A stretch of DNA of 64,000 nt from Bacillota bacterium (lineage in GTDB: Bacteria; Bacillota; Dethiobacteria; DTU022), in assembly GCA_012799185.1 (NCBI GenBank), contig JAAZLS010000021.1:14242-78241 (forward strand). The letters run 5' to 3'. Of this stretch, positions 40,513-58,608 are shown piece by piece. Made by a program: the position numbers and the translations under genes. Under the pieces are notes generated by a model. The model ran no database searches. It was given only the letters and a program-made list of their open reading frames with translations, and had not been told where the DNA came from. Each line of letters opens with the position of its first letter. Positions within the stretch are counted from its first letter, which is position 1.

Positions 40513-40518
40513 AAAAGG

Positions 40519-40573: not shown

Positions 40574-41380
40574 TCAGGTCAAGGGGATATCGCCTAGGTT
40601 TACATCCTTCTCCGTATCGATATTCTCAAATACCTTTTTCTTGCCATCGCTCTCTATTGTCAGGTTATAGGTGCCGGTCTCCTCTAGATCCTTGAACCAA
40701 AAATCACCGAACTCGTCGGTGGTGGCGGTAGCGGTTTTGCCGTTACCGGCCAGTGTACAGGTCGCCCCGATGATAACCTCTTTTTCCACCGGGTCGTAGA
40801 CTGTACCGGCAACAAAGCGCTTCATCCTGTTAAGGTAGTAAACCCTCGGCTTGTAGCCGCCTTCGGGGTGAACCACCTCCGCCCGGGCGATTTCGTCAGC
40901 AAACTCCGACTCCTCTCCAAATTTAATTGCCTCGGTAGGGCAGGCGTCAACACAGCGCGGTACCTCCCAACCGTCATCAAGCAAATGGGCACACCCGGTG
41001 CATTTCTGGGCGATATACAGGTTTTCATTGAAATAAATCGCCCGGTAGGGACAACGATCTACACACTCCCGGCAACCGGTACATTTTTCTGGGTCTATAA
41101 TGACTAGGCCGTCATCACGGCGATAGATGGCCCCCTCAATCGGACAGTACTCAATACAGGGTGCATTCTCACAGTGCATGCAGAGATAGGGCCGGTAATC
41201 TACCTTTACCTTGGGAACAGTGCCCCGGACCTCTTCCTGCATCTTGAGCCAGAACTGGCCGGTATCCGGCTGCGGCTTGGCATAAGGGGTCCAGTCGTTG
41301 CCTACATGCTCATCCTTGCAAACAAACTGGCAGGCATAACATCCATTGCATCGGGCCAGATCGATAACAAAAACTTTCAT
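40574..41380 (-). CDS. Fe-S (3x[4Fe-4S]) beta subunit of a DMSO-reductase-family molybdoenzyme, transhydroxylase (BthL)-like, with a C-terminal transthyretin/CarboxypepD_reg-like domain
   Basis: Cys clusters CNGCYACQFVC, CMHCENAPC and CTGCRECVDRC, and a C-terminal beta-sandwich tail (GATCTLAGNG...GDFWFKDL...YNLTIESDGK). Confidence 0.8.
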   Translation of the reverse strand: MKVFVIDLARCNGCYACQFVCKDEHVGNDWTPYAKPQPDTGQFWLKMQEEVRGTVPKVKVDYRPYLCMHCENAPCIEYCPIEGAIYRRDDGLVIIDPEKCTGCRECVDRCPYRAIYFNENLYIAQKCTGCAHLLDDGWEVPRCVDACPTEAIKFGEESEFADEIARAEVVHPEGGYKPRVYYLNRMKRFVAGTVYDPVEKEVIIGATCTLAGNGKTATATTDEFGDFWFKDLEETGTYNLTIESDGKKKVFENIDTEKDVNLGDIPLT

Positions 41381-44029
41381 CTATTCGTTCCCTCCTTCTA
41401 CCCAGCCGTTAAAGTGCAACCCGGCATCAGGACAGTATTTCCGCTCGAAGGCTGCGGGGTTCTCTTCACGCCAGCGAGCCCATTCCTTCGGCTCGATCTT
41501 CTGCACATCGACCAGGTAGCCGCTGGTAGCCTGGCCGGCTGCATTCTTGGAAGATACCCCCAGGGGGCTAATAGTATTGATCGCTCCACCGCGGCAAACA
41601 TCCTTGGCAATGGGGTCGTAACGGGCCCCGTGATCCACGTAGGCCACGCCGGGCATAACTCTTTCCCAGACCCGGGCCCCACAGAGGACAATCCCTCTCT
41701 CGTTTACTATCTTGACAATCTCCCCATCCTTGATCCCCCGTTTTTCCGCCTCCTGCGGATTAATCCAAACCGGCTCATATTTATAGCCATCGGGGCCGGT
41801 TACCTTACAGGTTGGCGTCTCCCGGGTCCAGGAGATATCATCAGCCTGAGAGTGTACGCGCCAGCGGCCGTGGTTGGACATTAACAAGAGTGGGAACATG
41901 GCCGCCCGATCGCTGGATAACCGCTCATCGTGGGTAATCCCTTTTTCAACCCACTTGGGAATAGGCGGCCTCTCGTGATCGTCGGGGAAATGTTTGGCCA
42001 ACCGCTCGGAGTAAATTTCCAGTTTCCCGGTCGGGGTAGGCAGGGGATTGTTTTCCGGATCCTCATAAAATTTACGTAGGCCCGGTGTATCCTCTTCCCA
42101 ATCCTCGGCGGTAGGAAATGCATAGTACTGCTTCTCCTTGAAATCTTCCCACGAAATAAAATTACCCAGGGCCATGCTATCGAAAACCTCTTTTTGTAGG
42201 TCCTCGATGCTTTTCTCTTCGCTAAATTCTTTTTCCTTACCAAGCTTTTTAGCTACCTCCAGAACCGCCTCGTAATCACTCTTCGACTCCCCCACCGGCT
42301 TAATAGCCTGATTCAGTAGGGTTACACTTTGGAAATGAACACCCTGCCGGGTATTGGTAACGATATCGTCTACCTCCATGTTGGTATTAACCGGTAAAAT
42401 TATATCGGCCAGCAGGCAATCGTTTTCCAACCATGGATGCTGAGCTACCACACATTCAATCGAAGGATGACGAAAAGCCTCCACCGTCTTATTACCATAA
42501 TTCCAACAGGTAATACGGCAAGGGGTATCGGTCCAAATCATATGGATCTCAGTACCGCCCTTTTCCTTCTCAATCGGATAGGTGTATTTGACAAACTGAT
42601 CCTCTGGCGGCGACTCGATTCCGCCGTCACCCCAGAAGACGATGGGCGGATTAAGTATAGCGTCTTGGATCAAGGTTTTCGGTATCAACTGTTTACCCCA
42701 GCCAAAAATAGTGGAGTCGCAAGGAACCCTTAACCTTTCACTCAACGCCGTGTTAAAGAAACGGGTATCTTGAACCCCTTTCGCTCGGGGCATCCCGATA
42801 TAGGAGATCTGCCACTGGTGCACCCCCGGGCCGCCCAGGCCCTGCATGGCCAGGAGGACACATTCCAGCCTTCCCGCTTCATGAGAGTAGGGACCCCTGA
42901 TGAAAGAACCGCCAAAGTAGTGGGCAATCGAGAAGGTTTTTTCTGCCAGGTACCGGGCAAAAGCCTTAATGGTCCAAGGCGGAACCCCACATTTTTCGGA
43001 AGCCCATTCCGGTGTCTTCGGAATATTATCTTCCTCCCCCATAACATAGGCGGCCAGCTTCTCAAGGCCCACCGTATGGGTCGCCACGTAATCCTTGTCG
43101 TAAAGTCCCTCTTTTAGCCAAATATAAATAATAGCTAGCTGGAGGGCCGCATCGGTGTTGGGCAGGACCGGGATCCATTTATCGGCATGAACCGCCGCTC
43201 CATAATTTACCTCGGGGCAGACATAAATCTGTTTAATACCCGCATCGCGCCAGAAATAGCAGATCCGAGAGGCATACTGACCGGTAAAACCCCAAACCGT
43301 GGTTTCCGGGTCACAGCCCCAGAAGAGGACTGCATCGCTATGCTCCGAAATATCCTTGAGCACATTATCTGCCGGTCGCATCATGCCCTGCGAGCCCTGG
43401 CCCCAAACATGTTTCGACCCCCAGTACCAGCCCTCCCAACTATCCGGGTTTCTCACCTGCTGGGTAAACCCGCCCATCATATCAAGAAGCCGGGCCTGGT
43501 GCCCATGGGGGGTGTGAATGGTTTTACATTCGCCATGGCCATCGCCCTGGGTAAGAATCGCCAGGGGGCCATACTTCTGATGAACCCTTTTTATTTCACT
43601 GGCAATTAAATCGGTAGCCTCATCCCAGGAGATCCGCACATACTTACTTTTACCCCTATTCTGGGGGTTACGCTCCCCCTCCGGATCCCAGTCCACCCGG
43701 CGAAGGGGGTATTTAATTCGGTTGGGCGAGTAGGTTCTTTTCTTGTAAGCCAGTGAAAATGGAGATGGTAATGCCTTAAAAAGCGGTTGTAAGGTCGCGC
43801 CGTTCCGCTCAATTTTCCAGGGGTTTAGCGCCTCCCGGTCATATTTCCAATCGTAATGGAACGGCCGAACTCGAAGAATTTTACCGTCTTTTACATCAAC
43901 TGCACATTCGCCTCCACCGCCCAGCAGGCCCCCTAATGCAAGGGACCTGATGACTGTTTTATCGCCGGCGGTATCTGGCCTGGCGGCAGTAGGCTTGTTG
44001 CCGCCCCGGTTTTTTTCCTCCAACATCAT
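41381..44029 (-). CDS. molybdopterin (bis-MGD) oxidoreductase alpha subunit, pyrogallol-phloroglucinol transhydroxylase (AthL)-like. It has no N-terminal Fe-S Cys motif and no Tat signal.
   Basis: 882-aa product with DMSO-reductase-family domain order. Translationally coupled to the beta subunit (stop/start overlap at 41380/41381). Confidence 0.8.
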   Translation of the reverse strand: MMLEEKNRGGNKPTAARPDTAGDKTVIRSLALGGLLGGGGECAVDVKDGKILRVRPFHYDWKYDREALNPWKIERNGATLQPLFKALPSPFSLAYKKRTYSPNRIKYPLRRVDWDPEGERNPQNRGKSKYVRISWDEATDLIASEIKRVHQKYGPLAILTQGDGHGECKTIHTPHGHQARLLDMMGGFTQQVRNPDSWEGWYWGSKHVWGQGSQGMMRPADNVLKDISEHSDAVLFWGCDPETTVWGFTGQYASRICYFWRDAGIKQIYVCPEVNYGAAVHADKWIPVLPNTDAALQLAIIYIWLKEGLYDKDYVATHTVGLEKLAAYVMGEEDNIPKTPEWASEKCGVPPWTIKAFARYLAEKTFSIAHYFGGSFIRGPYSHEAGRLECVLLAMQGLGGPGVHQWQISYIGMPRAKGVQDTRFFNTALSERLRVPCDSTIFGWGKQLIPKTLIQDAILNPPIVFWGDGGIESPPEDQFVKYTYPIEKEKGGTEIHMIWTDTPCRITCWNYGNKTVEAFRHPSIECVVAQHPWLENDCLLADIILPVNTNMEVDDIVTNTRQGVHFQSVTLLNQAIKPVGESKSDYEAVLEVAKKLGKEKEFSEEKSIEDLQKEVFDSMALGNFISWEDFKEKQYYAFPTAEDWEEDTPGLRKFYEDPENNPLPTPTGKLEIYSERLAKHFPDDHERPPIPKWVEKGITHDERLSSDRAAMFPLLLMSNHGRWRVHSQADDISWTRETPTCKVTGPDGYKYEPVWINPQEAEKRGIKDGEIVKIVNERGIVLCGARVWERVMPGVAYVDHGARYDPIAKDVCRGGAINTISPLGVSSKNAAGQATSGYLVDVQKIEPKEWARWREENPAAFERKYCPDAGLHFNGWVEGGNE

Positions 44030-44098: not shown

Positions 44099-44115
44099 AT
44101 GCAATTAACATGCCA
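44099..44115 (-). promoter_or_regulatory. sigma54 (-24/-12) promoter TGGCAT-gttaa-TTGCAT for the alpha1/beta1 operon
   Basis: Minus strand reads gaTGGCATgttaaTTGCATt, about 70 nt upstream of the 44029 start. Confidence 0.65.
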
Positions 44116-44332
44116 TCATTTCCCGGGGATAAAAGGTTGTCTGTTCAAGGCTAGGCCCCCCTTGAAATAATTTATCACCATCGATGGGGGCAACCATGTA
44201 AATATTAATTAACATTGTTCCACTTTGTTTAACTCAAGGTTTACCACCCGCGCCGGGTTCGATCATTTCACCGGAGAATAAACCCTACCGGGGACGCAGT
44301 GATTTTAATTATTTATGGTATAGTATTGAATA

Positions 44333-44998
44333 TTGGTAGTAAAAATACCTAACTCTAGCCGGGCGGTGATTAAAATGGATTTTATTGAAGTTTTAAAGGG
44401 AAGGCGTAGTATCAGGAGTTTTCTCCCCCAGGAAGTCCCGGAAGAAGATATCAGAGAGATTGTTGAACTGGCCACCCTGGCTCCCAGCGCAGGAAATAAA
44501 CAGGATTGGCAAACCATCGCCATCTTTAATCGGGAGATAAAACTCCAGATGAAAAAAGTAATCCAGGATAAACTGGCAACACTGGCGAAACAAGCGGGGG
44601 TTGAGAATCCTGAGGCGGTTAGCCGAAGGCGGATTAATATCTTATTTGCCGATGCCCCGGTAGCCCTGGTCATTTTGACTAAACCCTATCGCTCACTGCA
44701 GGATGAAATCCTGGTAAAATGCGGTTACACGGATCAGGAGGTCGAACGCCTGCGGATGCGACCGGAGCTGCAGACTATCGGCGGCTTCATTCAATCCCTT
44801 TTGCTAGCCGCCTACAGTTACGGCTACGGAACCTGCTGGATGGTCGCCCCCAATGTCGCCCGACCGGAGATGGAGCAGATCCTGGGCGTTAAGAAGCCCT
44901 GGTCAATCTCCGCCCTGGTAGCCCTGGGCCGTCCGGCAAAAGAACCGGGTCGCAAAATAGTGAAGCCGGTCTCCGAGGTTCTCAAAATAATAAATTAG
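44333..44998 (+). CDS. nitroreductase-family FMN oxidoreductase
   Basis: GRRSIRSF...PSAGNKQDW is the nitroreductase fold signature. Product is 221 aa. Confidence 0.8.
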   Translation: MVVKIPNSSRAVIKMDFIEVLKGRRSIRSFLPQEVPEEDIREIVELATLAPSAGNKQDWQTIAIFNREIKLQMKKVIQDKLATLAKQAGVENPEAVSRRRINILFADAPVALVILTKPYRSLQDEILVKCGYTDQEVERLRMRPELQTIGGFIQSLLLAAYSYGYGTCWMVAPNVARPEMEQILGVKKPWSISALVALGRPAKEPGRKIVKPVSEVLKIIN

Positions 44999-45026
44999 GG
45001 GTGCCCGGCGGCACCCCAGTTTTTTG
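44998..45026 (+). terminator. intrinsic terminator of the nitroreductase gene
   Basis: ggggtgcc cggc ggcacccc followed by agttttttg. Confidence 0.75.
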
Positions 45027-45061
45027 TTCGGAACTATTTACACCCTCCCCGGCGGCAACCC

Positions 45062-45859
45062 CTATTTTCCGGTTTCAAAGCGAAATTCCTGTTCTGGATC
45101 GATGAGCGCCAGAACGCGGACAATACAACCGTCCCCGCCTTCCCATCTCCAGGGGAAAGCCATGAAAAAGCATCGTTTTCCGGTAACCTTATCCAGGTCG
45201 CCCCCTACGTTTTCAATGCCGGGTATACCGCCTTTAACCATCAGGTTCTTGTGGGCATCTTCCCAAAGGGGGAAATCTACCTTTGGGTCACGGCCATATT
45301 CTTGCTTCCATTCCTCTATTAAATGGGGGTGAGTCGGGCCGAGGCCGTGATCTACCAGCTTGGTCGCCAGGGGGTGATCATTGGCCTGGCATCCATAACC
45401 CACTAATTTTATCTTTTTTTCGACCAACCAGTCAGCACCGGCACCATTAATACCACAACCATAGGCAAAATATTCATCGGTATCGGCCCATTTATGATGG
45501 AACCCGGTATTGATCATGACAATATCGCCTTCCTGAATTTTTGGCCGGGCATTTTCTAGATCTTCCGGGGTAATGATACCCCATTTTCCCTTGGGGATGG
45601 AGACAGCCACACCGGTCCCACATAACCGCCACAGGGGATAATCGCCAATACTGGGTGTATTTTCGGTTACGTGTAGCGGGGCATCCATATGGGTGGAGCG
45701 GTGCATGATCCCTTCCCAGTTTACCTCGTACAGGCCATCCTTGGCATGAAATTTCTTTACGGTAACATTGACACTGGGAGTAGAAGGCCATTCCGGCATA
45801 AATTGATGGTAGGGGTGACTTAGATTATATATTTGCAGGCTCATGTCTTCTCCTTTCAA
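45062..45859 (-). CDS. cyclase-family protein (PF04199, kynurenine-formamidase / isatin-hydrolase-like metal hydrolase)
   Basis: HRSTHMDAPLH matches the HxGTHxDxPxH signature. Product is 265 aa. Confidence 0.8.
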   Translation of the reverse strand: MKGEDMSLQIYNLSHPYHQFMPEWPSTPSVNVTVKKFHAKDGLYEVNWEGIMHRSTHMDAPLHVTENTPSIGDYPLWRLCGTGVAVSIPKGKWGIITPEDLENARPKIQEGDIVMINTGFHHKWADTDEYFAYGCGINGAGADWLVEKKIKLVGYGCQANDHPLATKLVDHGLGPTHPHLIEEWKQEYGRDPKVDFPLWEDAHKNLMVKGGIPGIENVGGDLDKVTGKRCFFMAFPWRWEGGDGCIVRVLALIDPEQEFRFETGK

Positions 45860-45868
45860 TCAAAATAT

Positions 45869-46672
45869 TTATTTACCCGGATCGATCCGGTAGCTACCGG
45901 CCGGATCGATAATCGCTACGAACCGTACCGGACAGGCGTCACCATTTCTAAATTTCCAGGGGGCGGCAACAAAGGTGGCTCTCTTCCCTAGTAAAAGATC
46001 GATATCCCCGCCTACCTGTTCAATCGTAGGGATACCGGCCTCGAGAAGGGTTTTATGGGCGATATTCCATTCGCCATGCTCTTTTTTAGGATCCAGGCCC
46101 GTAGCCTCCCGGTATTCGTCGGCCAACCTTTTCATGGTCGGCCCCCCCCGGTGGGGCCCCAGGGAGGTTGCCAGCGGATGATCAACCTGCTGGGTATCGA
46201 CCGCCACTAGCTTACACTTCCTTTCAACCAGCCACCGGGCCGCATCCCCGGTCAGACCGGGGGATTCGCCATAATACTCCAGTGAATCGGAGTACTTATG
46301 GTGCCACCCGGTAACGATAACTACAATATCTCCCGGCTGGACCGTTGCTTCATTTGCCTCCAAGTCCCCGGCAGTCACCGTTTCGTAGCTTCCCTTGGGA
46401 ATGCTAAGAACAATACCGTTACCAAAAAAACGATCCTCCGGGATTTCAGCTAGGTCCGCACCCTTTTGAACCAGGTGCAGGGGGGCATTCATATGAGTGC
46501 CCGTATGCATAGATGTATTTGTTTTCCAGGCTAAAACGCCATGTTGGGCATGTTTTACGGCCCTAAACATTTTCACATCATCCTGCCCAGGATAGGATGG
46601 TACACCATGACCCCAGGTATGACTGAGCTCCAAAAACTGTAAACCCGAATAGGGGTCGTTCACAAATGACAC
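45869..46672 (-). CDS. cyclase-family protein (PF04199), paralog of the preceding gene
   Basis: HTGTHMNAPLH motif, 267 aa, with an 8-nt gap to its paralog. Confidence 0.8.
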   Translation of the reverse strand: MSFVNDPYSGLQFLELSHTWGHGVPSYPGQDDVKMFRAVKHAQHGVLAWKTNTSMHTGTHMNAPLHLVQKGADLAEIPEDRFFGNGIVLSIPKGSYETVTAGDLEANEATVQPGDIVVIVTGWHHKYSDSLEYYGESPGLTGDAARWLVERKCKLVAVDTQQVDHPLATSLGPHRGGPTMKRLADEYREATGLDPKKEHGEWNIAHKTLLEAGIPTIEQVGGDIDLLLGKRATFVAAPWKFRNGDACPVRFVAIIDPAGSYRIDPGK

Positions 46673-46795
46673 CGTAATCCCTCCTTTTAATGAGATGGTT
46701 ATAGTCTTTTAACCTAAAAAATAATACCCCCTTATAAATGAGATAGCCTGGCCGCTAATCCGGCCACCGGGTTGCCTGCTTCGCACCAGTTATTT

Positions 46796-46812
46796 ATGCA
46801 ACATTTATGCCA
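46796..46812 (-). promoter_or_regulatory. sigma54 promoter TGGCAT-aaatg-TTGCAT for the tandem cyclase operon
   Basis: Minus strand reads gTGGCATaaatgTTGCATa, about 125 nt upstream of the 46672 start. Confidence 0.65.
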
Positions 46813-46844
46813 CCCGGGGGGCAACATCATTTAATAAGGGTAAA

Positions 46845-46870
46845 GGGCGGTACCATAACCGGTACCGCCC
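46845..46870 (-). terminator. hairpin (gggcggtacc ataacc ggtaccgccc), probable terminator of the alpha2/beta2 operon
   Basis: 10-bp perfect stem located 40 nt after the beta2 stop. The T-tract on the minus strand is weak (tttaccctta). Confidence 0.5.
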
Positions 46871-46911
46871 CATTGCAACCCCTTTTTAAAAACCGGTTGG
46901 CCACCCCGACT

Positions 46912-47766
46912 TTATACGGGGTCCAACATAACCTCACCCACGTTAATGCTCTTATGGGTAAATAGTTCCAGTTGGCGGGGCTGATATCCCTCATGCTCAA
47001 CAGTGAGAATATAACGGGTCTTCTTGCCAAGCCCCTCAAATTCAAAATCACCGTAGATATCGGAGCGGGTCTCCATGCTCACCCCGTTGCCGGCAAGGGA
47101 TACCTTTACCCCCGCGGCACATTCCCCCTGGTTATCTTTAAATACCACCTCGCCGGCAATAAAGTATCGCGGGATCCCCGCATACTTAATTAGAGGTTCG
47201 GTCCCAAACTCCGGATAGAGTACCTCGGATTTGGTTTCGGCCACCAGCCGGGAGACCTCACTGTCAGGATCATCCAGATCCCCAAACACCAGGGCGCCGG
47301 TAGGACAGGCCTCGACACATTTCGGCTCTTTTTCTCCCTGGTCCAACATATGGGCACAGAGGGTACACTTCTGAGGTAGCTGCTTCTCTTCGTTCCAGAA
47401 TATAACCCGGTAGGGGCAGCTGTTTACAATCTGCCTTTGACCCCGGGCCTTTACCGGATCGATAATCACAATCCCGTCCTCCCGCCGGTAAACTGCACCC
47501 TCCTTGGCCATCTCGATACAGGGTGCCTCCTGGCAGTGCATACAGGGCAGCGGGATATAATCAAGCTTGGGCTTGGGATACTCTCCCCGTTCTATTTGCT
47601 TGATCTGCATCCAGTAGTGGTCCTTTAAGGGATGACCCTCAGAATAGGGGGGATAATCATTATCATAAAATTCATCCCGGCAGGCTAAAAAGCAATTATA
47701 ACAGCCGGTGCACTTGTTAACATCGATAAAAATCGTATAACGCGCTATTTTAATCACTCCTCCCAC
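46912..47766 (-). CDS. Fe-S beta subunit, transhydroxylase small-subunit (BthL)-like, with C-terminal transthyretin-like domain (paralog 2)
   Basis: CTGCYNCFLAC, CMHCQEAPC and CTLCAHMLD ferredoxin clusters, plus a C-terminal GECAAGVKVSLAGNG...GDFEFEGL...YILTVEHEGY tail. Confidence 0.85.
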   Translation of the reverse strand: MGGVIKIARYTIFIDVNKCTGCYNCFLACRDEFYDNDYPPYSEGHPLKDHYWMQIKQIERGEYPKPKLDYIPLPCMHCQEAPCIEMAKEGAVYRREDGIVIIDPVKARGQRQIVNSCPYRVIFWNEEKQLPQKCTLCAHMLDQGEKEPKCVEACPTGALVFGDLDDPDSEVSRLVAETKSEVLYPEFGTEPLIKYAGIPRYFIAGEVVFKDNQGECAAGVKVSLAGNGVSMETRSDIYGDFEFEGLGKKTRYILTVEHEGYQPRQLELFTHKSINVGEVMLDPV

Positions 47767-50294
47767 TTTTCAATTTCAATCAAACAAGAATTAGGAGTCA
47801 TCCCGGGCGCATGCCTGGAAAGCAACCGCGAAGAGGTTAACAGGTTAACGCAACCGCCCCTATCCATCGAATCGGGCTTACCGGGTATTAGGGGATCATA
47901 CTTGGCCGATGAACCGTAGCTATGGATAATCCCGGGGCGAACCCATCCGGTAACCACGGCTACACAGAGCACCCCGCCCCGGTCGTTATAGAGACGAACA
48001 ATATCACCGTTATTAATCCCCCTTACCTCCGCATCCCGGGGATTAATACGGGCCGGCCACCAGTGGTAACCATCCTTTTTTATACGGTGGACCGGGATAT
48101 CATTCAGCCAGTCGGTATGTTTATCATAATGGGTGTGGAAGGAAAACCGGGGATGGGGAGAGAGCAGCTGTAACGGATATTTTTTAAATAGATCACTATG
48201 ATGTCCCTCCCAGCTAGGAATATAGCGGGGTGAGATCGGCCGTTCCCAATCTTCCGGAAAATGTTTTTTCAAGCTCTCCGATACAAATTCAATTTTACCG
48301 CTATAGGTGCCGAGTTCGTGGCCTTTCTCCGTATTCCGTTTCGGATTGGAAGGATCGGGGGTGTCACAGGCCCGCCCCTCGGCAAACCAGCGCAAACCGG
48401 GGGTCGGTTTATAGCCTTCTTTAATATTGATTACATGGTAACCTTTTCGATTAAAGGTCTCCCAATCGACCAGCTTGGGCAGGTCGGATAGTTCAAAGAA
48501 AGCCCGACACCAATCCAGCTCGCTCTTACCGCCATCGGTAAATTCATCTTTTAATCCAAGACGCTCGGCCAACAGGGCGAAAATCTGATAATCCGACTTG
48601 GATTCCCAGAGCGGTTCGATACATTTCTGTTGCCTGACAATTACCCGGTAGTTGCTTCCACTACTGGCATGCCCAGTATAGCCCCCACAGGCACCCCACT
48701 CGGCCAGATCATCCCGTTCAAAGTTACTACAGGCCGGTAAAATAACATCGGCCATCCGGGTCTCGCTATTGAACCAGACATCCTGGTTTACAACGAATTC
48801 CAGCTTGGGGCTCTGGTACATTTTGACCCATTTGGAGGTATCGAGCATGGTACCGATAAAAGAGCCCCCGTAACGGTAGAATAGCTTGATCTCGGAGCAT
48901 CCCTCCGCCGGGTACTCAAAGTATTCAAACTGCTGCTCCAGGGAGCCGCCGCAGAATCCGGCCCCATGCCAGCTCAGGGGTGGGTCAAGGATCGCATCGG
49001 GTAAGGTAAGACGGTACAGCCGCTGCCTATTTTTATTAACCGGTATAAAATTAGCGGCCTTGGTCGCAGAAGAGATCTTGCCCTGGGGATCGGCATAGGC
49101 TGGGAAAAAGTAGTCGGTATCTGAGGGCGCCCCCATGGTGGTCCCCCATATGGACCGGCCGGGCTTACCGAGCCCCTGCATAGCCTGGAGCAGGACCATC
49201 ATGCGGGCCCACTCGGTCGCATAGGCCTGGCGACAGGCACCGCCCTCGCCACCGCGGGCACCGCCGGAAAGGATAGTCCTTTTTTCCGCCCATTCCCGGG
49301 CCAGAGCCCGAATCACCCGGGCCTTCACCCCCGATTCTTCCTCCGCCCACTCCGGGGTCTTGGGCTGCCCGTCTATCTCCCCCAATATATATTTTTTAAA
49401 CTCATCGAACCCGATAGTCCGGTTTTCAATATATTCCCGATCGTAACGCCCCTCGGTAATCCATACATAAGCAATCGCCATCGCCAGGCAGGTATCGGTA
49501 CCGATACGCGGGGCAATCCACTTGCCGCCCATAACAGCGGCGGTAAAATTATAAAAGGGATCGATAAAAACAGTCTTAACCCCTTTCTTTTTGAGCCACT
49601 CCCGCCAGAGGGCCGACTCCTGGCCGGTATAGGTCCCGCGGGTTGAATCGGGATCATTAGACCAGAGGACAATCATCTCGGCGTTCTTTAAAGCATCCTG
49701 CAACATATCGTACGGTTCCGGCATTCCCAACCGCCAATAAAAACCATAGGTATGGGTGGCCCCCCAATGCCAGCCTTCCCAACTATCCGGATTATCCAAA
49801 ACCGGGGTAAAATCCAGCAGGTTCATAAAACGCATAAAGGAGCCATGCTTATAACCCACTATCCCCCAATTATGGTGGGAAGAGGTTAACCCGCTAATCG
49901 CCGAACCACCATAACTCTCCTTAACCCGTTTCAGTTCGCCGGCAACCAGGTCCAGCGCCTCCTCCCAGGAGATACGCACATAGCCTGATTTGCCCCTATT
50001 CTGAGGGTTGCGCTCCCCCTCCGGGTTAAAATCAACCCGCTTCATCGGATATTTAATGCGTTCATCGGAGTGAATCCTCCGCCTCTCCGCGTGAACATAA
50101 GGCGCCACGGCAAATTTTTTCGGTGCAGTAAACTTATGTTCACCGGCCTCAATGGTCCATGGCTTTAAATCTTTCTCTTCGGCAACCAGGGGCCTGATCC
50201 GCACTACCTTGCCATCCCTTACGTAGACGGAGACGGGACCGGCGTTGGTGCAATTCGTAAAGACCTGTTCAGTCATTATCCATATCCTCCTCAC
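47754..50294 (-). CDS. molybdopterin oxidoreductase alpha subunit, transhydroxylase large-subunit (AthL)-like (paralog 2); start probably MTEQVFTNC
   Basis: 846-aa product with no Cys-rich N-terminus or Tat motif. Overlaps the beta2 start by 13 nt, indicating coupling. Confidence 0.85.
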   Translation of the reverse strand: MRRIWIMTEQVFTNCTNAGPVSVYVRDGKVVRIRPLVAEEKDLKPWTIEAGEHKFTAPKKFAVAPYVHAERRRIHSDERIKYPMKRVDFNPEGERNPQNRGKSGYVRISWEEALDLVAGELKRVKESYGGSAISGLTSSHHNWGIVGYKHGSFMRFMNLLDFTPVLDNPDSWEGWHWGATHTYGFYWRLGMPEPYDMLQDALKNAEMIVLWSNDPDSTRGTYTGQESALWREWLKKKGVKTVFIDPFYNFTAAVMGGKWIAPRIGTDTCLAMAIAYVWITEGRYDREYIENRTIGFDEFKKYILGEIDGQPKTPEWAEEESGVKARVIRALAREWAEKRTILSGGARGGEGGACRQAYATEWARMMVLLQAMQGLGKPGRSIWGTTMGAPSDTDYFFPAYADPQGKISSATKAANFIPVNKNRQRLYRLTLPDAILDPPLSWHGAGFCGGSLEQQFEYFEYPAEGCSEIKLFYRYGGSFIGTMLDTSKWVKMYQSPKLEFVVNQDVWFNSETRMADVILPACSNFERDDLAEWGACGGYTGHASSGSNYRVIVRQQKCIEPLWESKSDYQIFALLAERLGLKDEFTDGGKSELDWCRAFFELSDLPKLVDWETFNRKGYHVINIKEGYKPTPGLRWFAEGRACDTPDPSNPKRNTEKGHELGTYSGKIEFVSESLKKHFPEDWERPISPRYIPSWEGHHSDLFKKYPLQLLSPHPRFSFHTHYDKHTDWLNDIPVHRIKKDGYHWWPARINPRDAEVRGINNGDIVRLYNDRGGVLCVAVVTGWVRPGIIHSYGSSAKYDPLIPGKPDSMDRGGCVNLLTSSRLLSRHAPGMTPNSCLIEIEKWEE

Positions 50295-50443
50295 TCCTGA
50301 AAGTATAATCTTCCACCTGCATCTTAACTAACTTAAGTGTTACACCCCCCATTTATATTCCAGTAGATATTAAAGGATGATCAAACCGGTTATTGCTACA
50401 TCTTTCCGGCCGGGTTACCTAACTATTTGGCTAACAGTACTTG

Positions 50444-50460
50444 ATGCAAATTTTATGCCA
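50444..50460 (-). promoter_or_regulatory. sigma54 promoter TGGCAT-aaaat-TTGCAT for the alpha2/beta2 operon
   Basis: Minus strand reads gTGGCATaaaatTTGCATc, about 150 nt upstream of the 50294 start. Confidence 0.65.
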
Positions 50461-50673
50461 CCTCCCACCGGAATAAATTTAACCCGCCCCTGTTTTTTTT
50501 TAAACGACTTCCAAGTTTCTTAAAACCCGGGCCCAGCCCCCGCTACTTTTCTACCCCTTAGATATTTAACATTGCGTTAATATTTTGACACATAGAAAAG
50601 CATCGACACACTAAAACCGGCTCGGAAGTCCAGGGCATGCAACAATTCGGAATTCTAGCCCCCCTGTAAATAT

Positions 50674-50690
50674 TGGCATACATTTTGCAT
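50674..50690 (+). promoter_or_regulatory. sigma54 promoter TGGCAT-acatt-TTGCAT for dctQM
   Basis: Plus strand reads atTGGCATacattTTGCATc, about 250 nt upstream of the 50943 start. Confidence 0.65.
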
Positions 50691-50942
50691 CTTTTAGGGC
50701 AGGAGACAACCCGGCTAGTAGTAACGACATTTTTAGACAACAACAGGTAATGCTTCACTTGTACTATAATACAAAATATTGCCACTGGCTGCAAACGGCC
50801 CGCCGGGGGGAGGTGATCGGGTAACCATTGAAGACAGGCAAGGAGACCGGTTATTAAATTGTTAGCAAACTGCCCTGGAGGAAACAGGCCCGGCGAATGA
50901 AAGGGCTCCAAAATAGAATTGAAAGGGGCGAATAACTGAAAA

Positions 50943-51446
50943 GTGTGGCTAAAAATACTAACCTGGTTGGACATATTCACGGAGAAAGCAAGCAATATTT
51001 TCCATTATATTGGCTCCGTTATCTTGGCAGTAATGATGTTTTTTACATTTGCCGATGTAGCAGGACGTTATTTTCTCAAACAACCAATCAAGGGATCCTT
51101 TGAAGTTACCGAGTATATGCTGGCTATTTTGATCTCTTTCTCCATTGCCTATTGCGGGGTAAAAAAAGGTCATATTCATGTAGACGTACTAACAATGCGC
51201 CTACCGCAGCGGGTTCAGGACATCTTAAATTCTATTACCCAACCGCTGGGCTTTATCTTGATCTTCTTAACCACATGGCATACCGTCCGCTTTGCCCTTA
51301 GTTTACACGCTTCCGGTATGTCCTCTACTGTTCTTGTAATACCGAAGTACCCCTTTGTTTTTATTGCCGCCGTCGGCCTGGGGTTATATTCACTGGTGCT
51401 ACTAAAAGATTTTATGGAATCCCTTTATAAGGCGGTGAAGCGATGA
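50943..51446 (+). CDS. dctQ: TRAP transporter small permease (DctQ)
   Basis: 167-aa product with 4 TM segments and typical DctQ N-terminal context. Overlaps dctM by 4 nt. Confidence 0.85.
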   Translation: MWLKILTWLDIFTEKASNIFHYIGSVILAVMMFFTFADVAGRYFLKQPIKGSFEVTEYMLAILISFSIAYCGVKKGHIHVDVLTMRLPQRVQDILNSITQPLGFILIFLTTWHTVRFALSLHASGMSSTVLVIPKYPFVFIAAVGLGLYSLVLLKDFMESLYKAVKR

Positions 51447-52744
51447 CACCAATTGTAGTCGGTATAATCGGTATCCTCATTTTATTTGTGTTACTGTTCC
51501 TGGGCATGAATGTGGGATTGGCCTTACTTTTGATCGGCTTTGTCGGTCAGGCTTATATTGCCGGGTTTGCACCTACCTTTGGCGGGCTAAGGATGATCCC
51601 CTACTCTACCTTCGCCTCCTACAGCTTAAGTGTTATCCCATTATTCATCTTGATGGGTAATTTGGCTTTCCATTCCGGGCTAAGCCGCGATCTTTACCTT
51701 GCGGCCCGCAACTGGTTGGGACGGCTACGGGGCGGTTTAGCCATGGCCTCGGTAGCGGCATGCGCCGCTTTCGCTGCCTGCAGCGGTTCCAGTGTAGCTA
51801 CCGCGGCTACATTAGGGAAGATAGCGTTGCCGGAGATGAAAAGGTATAATTACGATGACGGGCTGGCCACCGGTACCCTGGCCGCCGGCGGCACCATGGG
51901 TATCTTGATCCCCCCCAGCGTAATCCTCATTATATATGGTATCCTGACCGAGCAGTCCATCGGGAAACTTTTTTTAGCCGGTGTTATCCCCGGCATACTG
52001 GAAGCTGTCTTCTATATAATAACAATTTATATCTTAACTACTCTCTACCCATCGTGGGGACCGCCCGGACCTAAAACTACCGTAAGAGAAAAATTTATTT
52101 CGCTAAGGGATACCTGGGGTTTTATTGCCCTGTTCCTACTGGTTATCGGCGGGATCTACATGGGTGTTTTCAGCCCCACCGAAGCCGGGGGTATCGGTGC
52201 ATTCGGTACCTTTATATTCTGCCTATTAAGGAGAAGGCTCCGTTGGGATACCTTTAAGGAGAGCCTGATTGACTCGGGCCAGACCGCAGCCATGATCTTT
52301 TTGATCATGCTGGGAGCTAACTTTTTCGGCCACTTCCTGGCGGTCACCGGTCTCCCCGCCGCCCTCACCGCCTCCCTGGCCACCCTCGCCGTTAGCCGGT
52401 ATGTGATCCTCTTGCTTGTATTTATATTCTACCTTATCCTGGGCTGCGTTATGGACTCCATGGCCATGATTCTAATTACCGTGCCCATCTTCTTCCCGTT
52501 GGCATTGGAACTAGGTTTTAACCCTATCTGGTTCGGGATCTTCATCACTCGGGTAACCGAGATTGGCATGGTTACTCCCCCGGTGGGGATGAACCTTTAC
52601 GTCATCAAGGGGGTAGCCAAGGATGTACCTATGAGCACCCTGTTCCGGGGAGTGTTCCCCTTCGTAATCGCCGATATCCTCCATGTTGCCTTAATTACAG
52701 CACTCCCCATACTAGCCACATTTTTACCCAGCATGATGAGGTAA
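51443..52744 (+). CDS. dctM: TRAP transporter large permease (DctM)
   Basis: 433-aa product with 12 TM segments and DctM-family conservation. Confidence 0.9.
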   Translation: MTPIVVGIIGILILFVLLFLGMNVGLALLLIGFVGQAYIAGFAPTFGGLRMIPYSTFASYSLSVIPLFILMGNLAFHSGLSRDLYLAARNWLGRLRGGLAMASVAACAAFAACSGSSVATAATLGKIALPEMKRYNYDDGLATGTLAAGGTMGILIPPSVILIIYGILTEQSIGKLFLAGVIPGILEAVFYIITIYILTTLYPSWGPPGPKTTVREKFISLRDTWGFIALFLLVIGGIYMGVFSPTEAGGIGAFGTFIFCLLRRRLRWDTFKESLIDSGQTAAMIFLIMLGANFFGHFLAVTGLPAALTASLATLAVSRYVILLLVFIFYLILGCVMDSMAMILITVPIFFPLALELGFNPIWFGIFITRVTEIGMVTPPVGMNLYVIKGVAKDVPMSTLFRGVFPFVIADILHVALITALPILATFLPSMMR

Positions 52745-52777
52745 AGCTAAAGATAAAATATAAAATATAAAATATAA

Positions 52778-52802
52778 GCCGGTGCAAAACCCTTGCACCG
52801 GC
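52778..52802. terminator. bidirectional terminator (gccggtgcaa aaccc ttgcaccggc) preceded by an (aaatata)x3 simple repeat
   Basis: 10-bp perfect stem lying between the convergent dctM and SDR genes. Confidence 0.7.
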
Positions 52803-52821
52803 TCATATTATCTACCAAAAA

Positions 52822-53595
52822 TTACCCGATAGCGGTCAGGCCTCCATCTACGTAGATAATTTGGCCGGTCACAAAATCGGAGGCCGCCGAGGCCAGGAAG
52901 ATAGCCGCACCAACCATATCTTCGGCTTTCCCCAGGCGGCCCAAGGGAATATTCCTCAGGTATTTTTCGGTTCGCCCCGGTTCTTTCATCTGCTTCTCTG
53001 TTAACTTGGTAGCTATTAAAGCCGGGCCGATCGCATTAACATTTACATTAAATGGTGCCCACTCCGCCGCCAGACAGCGAGTAATCATATCTACCGCCCC
53101 CTTGGTGCTGCAATAGGCACTATTCCCGCCGGCATTGGCCCGAATTCCCCGGACCGATGATAGGTTGATAACCTTACCCGAGCGCCTTTTAGTCATTATC
53201 CGGCCAAATTGTTTACAGCTGATCATTGTTCCCATGGAGTTAACATTATGTAACAGCTGCCAATCCTCCATTGATAGGTCAAGACCCTTTGCCTTCTTAT
53301 TGGCCCCATGGGCATTAACTAAAATATCTACCGTTCCGTACCGGGCAACGATTTCACCAACCAGCCGGATTACATCCTCCTCATCGGTTATATCCACCCC
53401 CATGGCTGTCGCCTCCCCACCGGTCTCCCTACCTATCGCCGCTGCCCGCAGTTTCAAGTTTTCAATATTTCTACTGGCCATGACCAGCCGGGCACCGTGC
53501 TCCACGAAACCGGTAGCGATCGCCCCCCCGATACCGCCGGCACCGCCGATTACCACCGCCACCTTACCACTTAAATCAAATCTTTTTTTCATCAA
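52822..53595 (-). CDS. SDR-family NAD(P)-dependent oxidoreductase (candidate phloroglucinol reductase)
   Basis: GGAGGIGGAIA Rossmann motif and YCSTK (YxxxK) catalytic motif. Product is 257 aa. Confidence 0.85.
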   Translation of the reverse strand: MMKKRFDLSGKVAVVIGGAGGIGGAIATGFVEHGARLVMASRNIENLKLRAAAIGRETGGEATAMGVDITDEEDVIRLVGEIVARYGTVDILVNAHGANKKAKGLDLSMEDWQLLHNVNSMGTMISCKQFGRIMTKRRSGKVINLSSVRGIRANAGGNSAYCSTKGAVDMITRCLAAEWAPFNVNVNAIGPALIATKLTEKQMKEPGRTEKYLRNIPLGRLGKAEDMVGAAIFLASAASDFVTGQIIYVDGGLTAIG

Positions 53596-53627
53596 TCCCT
53601 CACCTCTTAGTATTAAAATAACCCGGG

Positions 53628-53960
53628 TTAAGGCTCTACTATAATCACCAGGACCGTTGCCGGGTTAACACCCCGAACTTTAATCGCCCGCTCTTCACCG
53701 GGAGCAATATAGAGTAGATCCCCCTCTTCCAAGAGGTGCTCCTCTTCTGGTCCGGCTACCGTCAACGCCCCGGAGAGAAGGTAGTAGACCCGCTCCTTAG
53801 CAGAGCTCGACATTTCGGCTCCACCGTTTGGCAGGAAATGGGATATCGATACCGTCAGGCGGCTGGCCGCGGTTTCCCGATCTACCTTTTTTAGACCCCA
53901 CATATGGAAATGCCGTTTGGCCTCGTAGGGTGTACCCTTATTGGCCTTAACTGTTTTCAT
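53628..53960 (-). CDS. cupin-domain protein
   Basis: 110-aa product with a cupin beta-barrel pattern (HMWGLKK...YYLLSGALTV...LLYIAPGEERAIK). Confidence 0.7.
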   Translation of the reverse strand: MKTVKANKGTPYEAKRHFHMWGLKKVDRETAASRLTVSISHFLPNGGAEMSSSAKERVYYLLSGALTVAGPEEEHLLEEGDLLYIAPGEERAIKVRGVNPATVLVIIVEP

Positions 53961-54001
53961 TCCATCTACTCCTTTATATTTCGATTGGTCTAAAGGTTAT
54001 A

Positions 54002-54018
54002 TTGCAAGCACCGTGCCA
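54002..54018 (-). promoter_or_regulatory. sigma54 promoter TGGCAC-ggtgc-TTGCAA for the cupin-SDR operon
   Basis: Minus strand reads gTGGCACggtgcTTGCAAt, a canonical match about 45 nt upstream of the 53960 start. Confidence 0.7.
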
Positions 54019-54064
54019 CTCATATCCCCCCGCCCGCCGCAGCTCTCCTAAAACAAGAGGCCGA

Positions 54065-55351
54065 TCAGGTCACCCGGTCCCGGGAACCCGGAACGTTACC
54101 GTTATCCTTTATTTGGGAAACAATGATAGCGTTAACAACTAACAGAGCCATGATCAAGATTAGTATAAATTCGTAACGGCCCCAATAATCGTACGTGACC
54201 CCGCCTAAGTAGGAACTGGCGGCGGCCCCCAGATGATGGCATACCGTAACCAGGCCAAATACTATCCCTACCGATTCCTTGGTAAACATTTGGGTACATA
54301 AAGATCCCGTTGGGGCAATAGTAGCCATCTCTGTTATGCCGAAGGAGAGGGCAAAGATAAACAACAGAACCGGTGAGCGGGCATAGAGCAGAAGGATAAA
54401 AGTTAAACTCCTAAAACCATAGAGCAGGCGAAGTAGTTTCCCCCGATCAATCTGGTCAGCCAGGTAACCGGCCCCAACGGTTCCCAAGAGGCTACTTGCC
54501 GATAACAGGGTAAAAACAAGGGCAATCGTGTACGGTGTAAAGCCCCTCCCCTCGGCAAAGGGGATAAAGTGGGTCCCGGTAAAACCTATATCGGTAAAAC
54601 CACAAATAAAATAGGAGATTGATAACAACCAGAATACCCGGTTTCTGAAAATAACGCCCAGGGAGATCGGAACTTTTTCCTTCTGCACCCCGGCCCCGGC
54701 GGGAGTCTCTCCATCGCCATAGGGCGCCAGGTTAATATCGGCCGGTTTTGATCTGATAAATAAGGCCAGCAGGGGAGTTAAACCAAAGGTGACAATTTGC
54801 CCTAAAAGCAGCACCGCATAACGCCATCCATGGGCTTCAACGAGAAAAATGGTAGCCGGCACTAGAATTAAGGTCCCCACTGCCTGGCCCGAGGCAATTA
54901 TGCCCAGTACAAATCCCCTTTTTTTCGCAAACCAATGGGTAACCAGGGAGGCAGCCACCACGCTCGAACATCCGGCCGAGCCGCTAGGAAAAAACACCCC
55001 TAGTAAAATGATCAACTGCCAAAACCCGGTAACGGCAGAGGAAACCATTAATGAGGCCCCGATTAAAAGGGAGCCCAGGGCGAATATAATCCGTCCCCCG
55101 TATTGATCGGCAAGCTTTCCGGCCAGCGGTTGGGCAACCGCAAAAGTAATCCAACCCAGCAGGGGAATGGCGGCCGCAGCGGTACGGCTGATTAAAAATT
55201 CATTTTCCCAAGAAATAAAATAGGCCCCTAGAGCACCCCGTAGACCAAAATTTATAAGAGCTACAAATAACAAACCCACTAGAACCCAGCCGTAATGGAA
55301 CGGGAATTTATAAGAAAATAGTCTATCCCTCACCCGATATAGCCACCCCAC
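54065..55351 (-). CDS. MFS transporter
   Basis: 428-aa product with 12 TM segments. Confidence 0.8.
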   Translation of the reverse strand: MGWLYRVRDRLFSYKFPFHYGWVLVGLLFVALINFGLRGALGAYFISWENEFLISRTAAAAIPLLGWITFAVAQPLAGKLADQYGGRIIFALGSLLIGASLMVSSAVTGFWQLIILLGVFFPSGSAGCSSVVAASLVTHWFAKKRGFVLGIIASGQAVGTLILVPATIFLVEAHGWRYAVLLLGQIVTFGLTPLLALFIRSKPADINLAPYGDGETPAGAGVQKEKVPISLGVIFRNRVFWLLSISYFICGFTDIGFTGTHFIPFAEGRGFTPYTIALVFTLLSASSLLGTVGAGYLADQIDRGKLLRLLYGFRSLTFILLLYARSPVLLFIFALSFGITEMATIAPTGSLCTQMFTKESVGIVFGLVTVCHHLGAAASSYLGGVTYDYWGRYEFILILIMALLVVNAIIVSQIKDNGNVPGSRDRVT

Positions 55352-55404
55352 ACAAAAATTTGTATCCCGGTAAAGTACAGCCGCCTATAATCTACCAACA
55401 AATC

Positions 55405-55421
55405 ATGCAATTGCTATGCCA
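55405..55421 (-). promoter_or_regulatory. sigma54 promoter TGGCAT-agcaa-TTGCAT for the MFS gene
   Basis: Minus strand reads aTGGCATagcaaTTGCATg, about 55 nt upstream of the 55351 start. Confidence 0.65.
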
Positions 55422-55688
55422 TTCGTAACGTACCAGCCGGATCCCTGTAAAAGAGTATATTTACAAACAGTTTACACCATGTCAAGCTATTAACACACTC
55501 TTGGCCCAATAGGGAAGAGTCAAACAATCAAAGCCGGGCTAATAGCCAGACACCCGTGACCCGATATGATCTAATTTTGAGCATCGCCGGTTAATATTGA
55601 TAGCGATTCAAGCAAGATCCTGGGGCAACCCCTGGCCTCCCGTAGACCTTAAGACCGGGGGTAAATTACCCCCACCACTGCCCCTCAA

Positions 55689-55705
55689 TGGCATGGATAT
55701 TGCAT
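55689..55705 (+). promoter_or_regulatory. sigma54 promoter TGGCAT-ggata-TTGCAT for dctP
   Basis: Plus strand reads aaTGGCATggataTTGCATt, about 150 nt upstream of the 55857 start. Confidence 0.65.
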
Positions 55706-55856: not shown

Positions 55857-56951
55857 ATGAAGCGATCCCTTTTTTTAACACTGCTTGTGGTGACATTAGT
55901 CGTGTTAATGTCGGTCGTTGGCTGTACCCCCACCGTAGAGAACGGAGAGGAAAACGGAGACGCTGAACCGGTAGAGAAGATAACATTAAAATGGGTCGAC
56001 GAACATGCCACCACGGCCTGGGAGGCTAAAATGGCGGCCATCCCATTTCTACAGGAGATTGAAGATGTCACCGACGGCAGGGTCGAAGTTGATCCCTACT
56101 GGGCTAATACCCTCCTAGAGACCGTGGATATCTGGCCCGGCATCGCCGCCGGCACGGCTGATTTCGGCTGGTGTTTCATGGGTGTATACGGCGGAATGAC
56201 CACCCTGGCTGATGTGGTCACATTACCGTTCATGCCTTTCGAAAGTGCGGAACATGGCAGTGCAGTGCTCTGGACCCTTCTGAATGAGTTCCCGAACTTA
56301 GCAGAACAATTTGGTGAAAACCACATTCTCCTGACCTGGACCTCCGACCCCTATATTTTGGCAACCACCAAGAAACAGGTTAAAACCATGGAAGACATCA
56401 AGGGCCTGAAGATCAGAGCCATGGGCGGACCCCCCACCGAGATGGCCGAGTTGCTGGGGGCTGTTCCCCAAAGTATGCCCATGCCCGATACCTATACGAA
56501 CCTACAGACGGGTGTCCTAGACGGCATATTTACCCCCTGGGAAGCAATTATTAGCTGGCGGCATCACGAGGTTTGCCCTTATGTTACCACGATCCCCGCC
56601 CATAGCGTTTACTTTACCATTCCATTCAACCATGACAAGTGGAACAGCCTGCCCGATGATATTCGGGAGGCGCTGGAATCGGTAGGCGGAATGAAAGGCT
56701 CCCGGTTCTGGGGCAAACAGAAGTTTGATAGTGCCAGGCCGGAGGTGCTCCGGATGTGTGAGGAAGAGGGAATCGAGATTGAATTCTACGATCCCACCCC
56801 CGAAGAACTACTCCAGTGGAGAGAGGCAGCCGGCTTGCCCCTTTGGGACAAGTGGGTTGCCGACAGAGAGGCCGATGGATACGATGAGGCCCAGGAGATA
56901 TTGGATCGATGCCTAGAGCTGGCCGAGGCCGGACTGGCCGGGATGGAATAG
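55857..56951 (+). CDS. dctP: TRAP transporter substrate-binding lipoprotein (DctP family)
   Basis: Lipoprotein signal LMSVVGC and a 364-aa DctP fold. Confidence 0.85.
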   Translation: MKRSLFLTLLVVTLVVLMSVVGCTPTVENGEENGDAEPVEKITLKWVDEHATTAWEAKMAAIPFLQEIEDVTDGRVEVDPYWANTLLETVDIWPGIAAGTADFGWCFMGVYGGMTTLADVVTLPFMPFESAEHGSAVLWTLLNEFPNLAEQFGENHILLTWTSDPYILATTKKQVKTMEDIKGLKIRAMGGPPTEMAELLGAVPQSMPMPDTYTNLQTGVLDGIFTPWEAIISWRHHEVCPYVTTIPAHSVYFTIPFNHDKWNSLPDDIREALESVGGMKGSRFWGKQKFDSARPEVLRMCEEEGIEIEFYDPTPEELLQWREAAGLPLWDKWVADREADGYDEAQEILDRCLELAEAGLAGME

Positions 56952-58369: not shown

Positions 58370-58439
58370 GGGTTGCGGTTGAAAGTTTAGTTTAAAATGA
58401 TATAATAATTGTCAACCAATTCTATACTGCTCCGAACCT

Positions 58440-58608
58440 TGCCACCTAACGCCGCGTCTTATGGGCCATGGTTCAAGGTCTGGGCCGGGGGAGAAATCCC
58501 CCTGCCTCCCGCATTTGGAAAGGAGGACGCCAGTGAAACCGCGTTTTCTTAAACATGGAGGCGCGGTTGTTTTTTTGGCCCCAAAATCTAAGAAAGAAGG
58601 GATAAGAA
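58440..58608 (+). promoter_or_regulatory. structured leader with intrinsic terminator (58537-58577) upstream of moaA; candidate Moco riboswitch
   Basis: GC-rich leader gggccgggggagaaatccccctgcctcccgcatttggaaaggaggacgcc, followed by aaccgcg...cgcggtt plus gttttttttg, directly before the moaA GTG start. The class assignment comes from context (upstream of moaA), not from a verified consensus match. Confidence 0.4.

Follow-up and report, generated by a model that had tools for sequence, protein, structure and literature searches.

The stretch of DNA analysed here (64,000 nucleotides of contig JAAZLS010000021.1 from a Bacillota bacterium; 'the window' in the following) carries, between positions 44099 and 55705, seven near-identical copies of an element that resembles a sigma-54 (RpoN/SigL) promoter of the -24/-12 type. 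Each copy precedes a short transcription unit, and the seven units comprise 12 genes in total, with one or two genes per promoter. Judged from their sequences, the products of the cluster are two transhydroxylase-like molybdoenzymes, two putative ring hydrolases, a cupin and a short-chain dehydrogenase/reductase (SDR), a split tripartite ATP-independent periplasmic (TRAP) transporter and a major facilitator superfamily (MFS) carrier. An original prediction, made from the sequence without database searches, had described the seven elements as the promoters of a tight sigma-54 regulon.

Seven elements and their transcription units

The elements are numbered P1 to P7 in the order of their coordinates; each is an exact match to the motif, and domain assignments are by Pfam unless noted otherwise. 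P1 (TGGCATGTTAATTGCAT; 44099..44115, minus strand) lies upstream of operon 1 (40574..44026, minus), which consists of alpha1 (41381-44026), an AthL-like molybdopterin subunit, and beta1 (40574-41380), with Fer4_11 and CarboxypepD_reg domains. The predicted leader of ~64 nt extends to ATG 44026, which is served by the ribosome-binding site GGTGAGG. P2 (TGGCATAAATGTTGCAT; 46796..46812, minus) is followed, after a leader of ~115 nt with the ribosome-binding site AGGAGG, by GTG 46672 and two genes of the PF04199 'cyclase' family (operon 2, 45062..46672, minus; genes at 45869-46672 and 45062-45859). The second transhydroxylase-like pair forms operon 3 (46912..50276, minus), in which alpha2 (47754-50276; AthL-like_1st, Molybdopterin and Molydop_binding) and beta2 (46912-47766) stand behind P3 (TGGCATAAAATTTGCAT; 50444..50460, minus) and a leader of ~159 nt to ATG 50276. 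This alpha2 start is consistent with the 840-aa homolog P0001.

On the plus strand, P4 (TGGCATACATTTTGCAT; 50674..50690) precedes the genes of the TRAP membrane subunits, dctQ (50943-51446; DctQ) and dctM (51443-52744; DctM), with a leader of ~244 nt to GTG 50943 (operon 4, 50943..52744, plus). P5 (TGGCACGGTGCTTGCAA; 54002..54018, minus) has the shortest leader, ~33 nt to ATG 53960, and heads a cupin gene (53628-53960; Cupin_2) and the gene of the SDR oxidoreductase (52822-53595; adh_short_C2), together operon 5 (52822..53960, minus). Downstream of P6 (TGGCATAGCAATTGCAT; 55405..55421, minus) and ~63 nt of leader, the MFS transporter gene (operon 6, 54065..55333, minus; MFS_1, E=3e-49) starts at GTG 55333, the same start as called on L086. 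P7 (TGGCATGGATATTGCAT; 55689..55705, plus) is separated by a leader of ~143 nt from ATG 55857 of dctP, the gene of the TRAP solute-binding protein (operon 7, 55857..56951, plus; DctP, and TRAP_S1 in NCBIfam).

Two pairs of promoters are divergent, with the -24 elements 215 bp apart in P3/P4 and 269 bp apart in P6/P7. The distance from P5 to the stop codon of the MFS gene is only 46 nt, and any activator site of P5 must therefore fall within the MFS coding sequence. Predicted terminator-like hairpins delimit the units. They were found after operon 1 (40517-40555), after operon 2 (44998-45017) and, in a form that would be bidirectional, after dctM (52771-52809); a hairpin with a perfect 10-bp stem (46845-46870), located between beta2 and P2 just upstream of the latter, would end the alpha2-beta2 unit.

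Sequence and distribution of the motif

The pattern TGGCAYNNNNNTTGCW matched the window exactly seven times. Dinucleotide-preserving shuffles averaged 0.04 matches, with 1 as the highest count, and none of 100 shuffles reached even two matches of TGGCAY-N5-TTGCW. Five of the matches to the latter are on the minus strand (44100-44115, 46797-46812, 50445-50460, 54003-54018 and 55406-55421) and two are on the plus strand (50674-50689 and 55689-55704). Relaxing the pattern to TGGC-N7-TTGC returned the identical seven sites and no extras. With up to two mismatches allowed, the window gave 47 matches compared with 39.25 expected; the 40 imperfect ones, which are at chance level, were scattered through coding sequence, and none of them was in promoter position. 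The distribution is thus bimodal, with seven perfect sites inside 11.6 kb and noise elsewhere.

All seven sites are intergenic and face the adjoining gene, and in all seven units a start codon with a Shine-Dalgarno sequence follows 33-244 nt downstream of the expected transcription start. The GG and GC doublets are exactly 10 nt apart in every site. The position after TGGCAY, which was not part of the pattern searched, is a purine in 7/7 sites, and the 17th base, next to TTGCA, is T in 6/7 sites and A in the remaining site. The general sigma-54 consensus is TGGCACG-N4-TTGCW, and every site matched all specified positions of the extended consensus. The motif also agrees with the consensus TTGGCATNNNNNTTGCT published for Clostridiales in a regulon reconstruction (PMC6615313).

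When the seven promoters were aligned together with their leaders, the invariant columns were confined to the sigma-54 core of 16-17 nt, and the flanks were unrelated. We therefore rejected the idea that the sites are copies of one duplicated segment, in view of an identity limited to the 16-nt core. Because only the sigma-54 core is common to them, we take the sites to be maintained independently of one another and not to be duplicated DNA. These results bear out what the original prediction had said of the motif: seven copies at the coordinates given above, far beyond chance, in promoter position and in the correct orientation. We infer sigma-54 binding from this agreement, and the seven sites are almost certainly genuine sigma-54 promoters.

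Two further observations concern the surroundings of the core. In 6/7 promoters, the 30 nt that precede the -24 element contain four or more consecutive G or C (CCCC to CCCCCC, or GGGGGG), for example at 44116-44145, 46813-46842 and 50644-50673; this was noticed post hoc, and such runs occur in 31.5% of all 30-nt windows. The 11-mer AGRYAACCCGG occurs in three of the predicted leaders, those of P2, P3 and P4 (46767-46777, minus; 50410-50420, minus; 50704-50714, plus), 15-25 nt past the -12 element. These three copies are among only four exact matches in 64 kb, and there is none after P1 or P5-P7. The 11-mer had no match in Rfam, and no known RNA elements were found in the long leaders.

Encoded enzymes and putative pathway

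Both alpha and both beta subunits belong to the AthL/BthL family according to Pfam, as do the alphas by comparison with the Pelobacter acidigallici pyrogallol hydroxytransferase (4v4c_A). Alpha2 aligned with this enzyme over the full length (E=1.2e-274) and alpha1 with E=2.3e-123; the two alphas are 35% identical to each other. By these Pfam and 4v4c_A comparisons, the gene assignments of the original prediction are right at family level. Alpha2-beta2 is, by sequence, a close homolog of pyrogallol-phloroglucinol transhydroxylase, and its substrates are putative.

Phloroglucinol reductase is an SDR, and from its context alone the SDR of operon 5 may be such an enzyme. The PF04199 cyclase family includes dihydrophloroglucinol cyclohydrolase, and a molybdenum transhydroxylase feeds the phloroglucinol pathway, whose anaerobic version consists of PGR, DPGC, HOHDH and TAL (PMC10470551). 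We dropped the SDR and the cyclases of the window as characterised enzymes, given that they had nothing beyond family-level matches; the SDR was generic by both NCBIfam and the Protein Data Bank. This four-enzyme pathway is incomplete here, with neither a BKACE lyase nor a hydroxyacyl dehydrogenase gene among the open reading frames of the window. Because the SDR and the cyclases match at family level only, and the dehydrogenase and the BKACE lyase are not in the window, the exact substrates stay presumptive. It is a reasonable reading of the gene content that the cluster serves the degradation and uptake of a trihydroxybenzene or hydroxybenzoate.

Homologs 70-80% identical to alpha1 and alpha2 occur in Desulfobacterota, Actinomycetota and Chloroflexota, and the closest relatives of alpha1 and of alpha2 belong to different phyla. 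The conservation of the alphas across phyla suggests horizontal spread. Homologs in the same range of identity were also seen in Acidobacteriota, SAR324 and a Methanoperedens metagenome-assembled genome. Paralogous alpha-beta pairs often stand side by side (four in locus L093, for example), and the family, which is highly conserved, has a very wide distribution and seems to be mobile.

As for the host, the same uncultured organism has been recovered repeatedly from biogas-fermenter metagenomes. The contigs are 99.4-100% identical, and this population variation was uninformative on the promoters. The window carries sporulation genes and hrcA-grpE-dnaK-dnaJ, which fits a spore-forming Firmicute, and the nearest named relatives of its DnaK are from Dethiobacter and Dethiobacteria (78-80% identity).

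The promoter motif at homologous loci

We compared 80 genomic loci with alpha2 homologs. The exact motif was found ~100-135 nt upstream of the alpha start only in L055, L057 (SAR324) and L070 (Desulfobacterales), as TGGCATATCTGTTGCT or TGGCATATCTTTTGCT; the alpha2 homologs of these loci are 67-72% identical. L060 has a near-exact copy, AGGCACATCTGTTGCT, ~310 nt upstream of alpha. The regions concerned are 7104-10001 in L057, ~7032-10001 in L060, ~8171-10001 in L070 and 416-546 in L055. In L057, L060 and L070, a gene for an enhancer-binding protein (EBP) with the GAFTGA motif lies immediately upstream of the alpha-beta operon; the EBPs of L057 and L060 have a long N-terminal region before the AAA+ core. 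What these loci from SAR324 and Desulfobacterales metagenome-assembled genomes share with the window is a sigma-54 motif upstream of an alpha-beta operon, but they are from Gram-negative lineages, have one promoter each and, in the three loci named, an adjoining EBP gene. Judged by the motif, sigma-54 control of this operon type recurs, sporadically, in 4/80 loci.

The closest relative of the cluster is L081, with 91% amino acid identity in alpha2 and 82% DNA identity (L081 1-5329 versus window 45061-50305). In L081, alpha2, beta2 and the two cyclase genes form one block, in which a 95-nt spacer takes the place of the 239-nt spacer of the window with its terminator hairpin and P2. The DNA alignment between L081 and the window is interrupted precisely where the intergenic regions with P3 and P2 lie.

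The distribution among the nearest relatives counts against the sigma-54 reading. L081 has no P2 in its spacer and no P3 in the available 195 nt upstream of alpha2. No motif in promoter position was found in L092 and L093 (alpha1 76-78% identical), nor in four other Bacillota loci. With the nearest relatives lacking the promoters, phylogenetic footprinting lends these no support. The close relatives without them indicate instead that the promoters are lineage-specific, and that P2 and its terminator, at the least, are a recent gain or loss.

The sequence TGGGAC...TTGCA, which L074 and L077 (both Bacillota) contain, was rejected as a promoter; of the two loci, L077 was inspected individually, and its copy is inside a coding region. 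L094 (FZPS01000013.1, 2.4 Mb), the only record of megabase scale with beta1, is a chimera combining SusC/SusD, EF-Ts, an alpha1 fragment with beta1, and phage portal genes, and it is consequently not usable as a host genome.

Activator genes and upstream sites

A sigma-54 promoter stays silent unless an AAA+ EBP acts on it. The -24/-12 element is read by sigma-54 itself, and for this reason the near-identity of the seven sites points to sigma-54 dependence and not to co-regulation. Co-regulation requires a common EBP and common upstream sites, so that a regulon under one activator can only be presumed from the promoters.

Several results speak against such a regulon. A regular-expression search of all six frames of the window found no GAFTGA, and tblastn with the EBPs of L057, L060 and L070 found no EBP in the window. 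The matches that the L070 query did produce were spurious, as the query reading frame ran into an antisense frame of the alpha gene. Neither an EBP nor rpoN was found in the left flank (10 kb, L082) or the right flank (~4.7 kb, L087), and rpoN is not in the window either. There was also no convincing common site upstream of the promoters: mismatch-tolerant k-mers, palindromic half-sites and inverted repeats were not significant, and the information content obtained for the upstream regions with a Gibbs sampler was no better than that of shuffles.

The best gapped pattern covered 4/5 upstream windows and was equalled by 6/300 shuffles (p ~0.02), a weak signal. A hand-derived, post hoc pattern, TTAAY-N0-6-ATTG, precedes the -24 element of P1, P3/P4, P5 and P7 by 94-122 nt; P2 and P6 have no copy at a fitting distance, which likewise counts against a common site. 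Between P3 and P4, the tentative candidate for an activator region is TTAACATTGCGTTAA (50566..50581), an imperfect dyad of the form TTAAC-N5-GTTAA; similar TTAAY..ATTG elements at 44205-44217, 54121-54135 and 55591-55599 are equally tentative. A common activator site is weakly suggested by these elements, which we regard as a lead only.

Neighbouring genes

The sigma-54 motif is absent upstream of the nitroreductase gene (44375-44998, plus), the second MFS gene (57146-58369, plus) and moaA, in agreement with the original prediction. Sigma-70-like sites were at chance level across the region (24 versus 22.6 expected). The single strong one (58379-58406, plus; 11/12 matches, extended TG) precedes moaA. 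Between it and a terminator-like hairpin (58537-58568, plus) ahead of moaA / mobB-moaC / MOSC-MoCF lies a molybdenum cofactor (Moco) riboswitch (RF01055; 58418-58541, plus; 62.7 bits). From this arrangement, the predicted control of the molybdenum cofactor operon is by the riboswitch and a sigma-70-like promoter, not by sigma-54.

At 37865-40288 (minus), a radical SAM gene is followed by a LigB/Memo-AMMECR1 fusion, without the sigma-54 motif. By sequence, this pair looks like the AmmeMemoRadiSam type and not like an aromatic ring-cleavage dioxygenase, and it is probably unrelated to the cluster.

Discussion

Taken together, our findings make it quite probable that the seven elements are functional sigma-54 (RpoN/SigL) promoters which head seven units co-regulated as one catabolic and uptake cluster, co-regulation being the more conjectural part. 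Of the tight regulon described in the original prediction, the sigma-54-type promoters stand by sequence, spacing, position and orientation; co-regulation is no more than plausible, as neither the window nor its flanks yielded an EBP and the common upstream motif is weak.

We infer the following course of events from the known properties of such promoters. RNA polymerase with sigma-54 would bind GG(-24)/GC(-12) and form a closed complex that is unable to open alone. One AAA+ EBP, with its gene at another place in the genome and with the aromatic substrate or an intermediate of the pathway as its presumed inducer, would bind ~100 bp upstream, loop to the polymerase and open the promoter with ATP. 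The pairs P3/P4 and P6/P7 could each use one common central activator site; at P2 and P5, the site would fall within the 3'-terminal part of the gene that lies upstream.

The alpha/beta pairs share their molybdoenzyme family with RehLS, the resorcinol hydroxylase with which the anaerobic resorcinol route begins. The closest proven counterpart is found in Aromatoleum (Azoarcus) anaerobium, whose resorcinol cluster has the sigma-54 promoters PrehL1, PbqdL and Porf14, two of them divergent; they drive operons that include resorcinol hydroxylase and are activated by RedR1/RedR2 (PMC10084136). Like the cluster in the window, it serves the anaerobic degradation of a hydroxy-aromatic compound with several operons, a sigma-54 promoter per operon and a divergent pair; the A. 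anaerobium activator sites are located ~100-130 bp upstream (PMC10084136). The differences are considerable. The A. anaerobium cluster contains two activators as well as an IHF site, whereas the presumed activator of the window is unlinked (PMC10084136); there are three promoters in 25 kb and not seven in 11.6 kb; and the host is a betaproteobacterium and not a Firmicute. Moreover, the cyclases and the SDR of the window point to a phloroglucinol-type route, in contrast to the hydroxyhydroquinone/benzoquinone route of A. anaerobium.

In gene content, the phloroglucinol cluster of Clostridium scatologenes is similar, with an SDR-type reductase, a 'cyclase'-family ring-opening hydrolase, an MFS transporter and an adjacent regulator (PMC10470551). 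Both clusters combine SDR, cyclase-family and MFS genes, and in both a molybdenum transhydroxylase would be the upstream feeder (PMC10470551). The likeness is at family level only, and the dehydrogenase and triacetate acetoacetate-lyase genes of C. scatologenes have no counterpart in the window. Unlike the window, the C. scatologenes cluster has its regulator next to it, and the paper makes no mention of sigma-54 there (PMC10470551).

In B. subtilis, the lev, roc, bkd and aco operons are under SigL. Clostridiales reportedly encode most of their sigma-54 activators beside the target operons. Catabolic operons and transporters are typical targets in the sigma-54 regulons that Nie et al. (2019; PMC6615313) reconstructed for Clostridiales, and some genomes of Clostridia carry 59-67 EBPs (PMC6615313, PMC12316311). 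The original prediction had called sigma-54 control of an aromatic pathway unusual in Gram-positive anaerobes; given how widespread such catabolic and transport regulons are in Clostridia, this was overstated. Those regulons resemble the window in the consensus, the catabolic and transport targets and the Gram-positive hosts (PMC6615313), and differ from it in that one promoter per regulated locus is usual, compared with seven in a row here. In the main text of the reconstruction the word 'aromatic' is absent, and none of the regulons listed there is described as aromatic, transhydroxylase or TRAP (PMC6615313). Our literature search found no paper that connects sigma-54 with transhydroxylase or gallate-type genes of Firmicutes, and nothing relevant for Peptococcaceae. 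The kind of regulation predicted here is therefore known, and it is the target pathway of sigma-54 control in Firmicutes that is new. Two traits are mildly unusual, namely the close packing of the promoters (seven within 11.6 kb, with one or two genes each) and the lack of a linked activator.

The most serious alternative is that the promoters are real sigma-54 promoters and at least two EBPs that sense different compounds control subsets of them, for instance those of the transporters, of the two transhydroxylase paralogs and of the lower-pathway genes. It would explain why no single upstream motif is common to all five upstream regions and why TTAAY..ATTG is misplaced at P2 and P6. A mosaic cluster, whose alphas are distant paralogs with closest relatives in different phyla, would also be compatible with several regulators, and the A. 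anaerobium cluster does use two activators (PMC10084136). On the other hand, the seven units are functionally coherent and packed in 11.6 kb, the divergent pairs have short common control regions, and no activator gene is nearby, hence there is no positive evidence for more than one. We consider this alternative rather unlikely.

It is very improbable that the element, written as TKGCAT-N5-TKGCAT, is the operator of another DNA-binding protein and that the genes are transcribed from unrecognised promoters of the sigma-70 type. The half-sites TGGCAT and TTGCAT do form a near-direct repeat with an 11-bp periodicity, and no sigma-54 machinery was found in the window or the flanks. Yet all specified positions of the sigma-54 consensus are matched, among them the purine that follows TGGCAY, and the strict orientation to the downstream gene (7/7) would be needless for a symmetric or orientation-free operator. 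Furthermore, no good sigma-70 promoters accompany the sites, and the same motif precedes homologous operons beside EBP genes in L057 and L070. Finally, chance, or duplicated DNA without regulatory meaning, for which only the general caution that a consensus match is not function can be adduced, has a negligible probability in view of seven sites compared with 0.04 expected, a likeness confined to the 16-17-nt core, and the intergenic, correctly oriented position of all of them.

Returning to co-regulation of the seven units from sigma-54 promoters, we tentatively propose 'promoter capture' as an origin, a possibility that we hold with less than even confidence. An orphan, distant EBP may command seven promoters that were assembled recently by the insertion of a promoter (once of a terminator and a promoter) before each horizontally acquired gene pair, and the cluster could then be the first Gram-positive sigma-54 regulon for trihydroxybenzene/hydroxybenzoate catabolism.

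What is known of the sigma-54 mechanism and of the enzymes themselves is unchanged by our results. If confirmed, the promoters would provide a regulatory handle on the anaerobic breakdown of polyphenols (tannin, gallate, pyrogallol-type) in a biogas-reactor Firmicute without a cultured relative. They would also mark the genes that belong together, including the second transhydroxylase paralog, the split TRAP transporter and the MFS carrier, and would predict an all-or-none, inducer-dependent switch with an identifiable activator and ligand. The relatives that lack the promoters may be a pointer to how fast sigma-54 control can arise before transferred catabolic genes.

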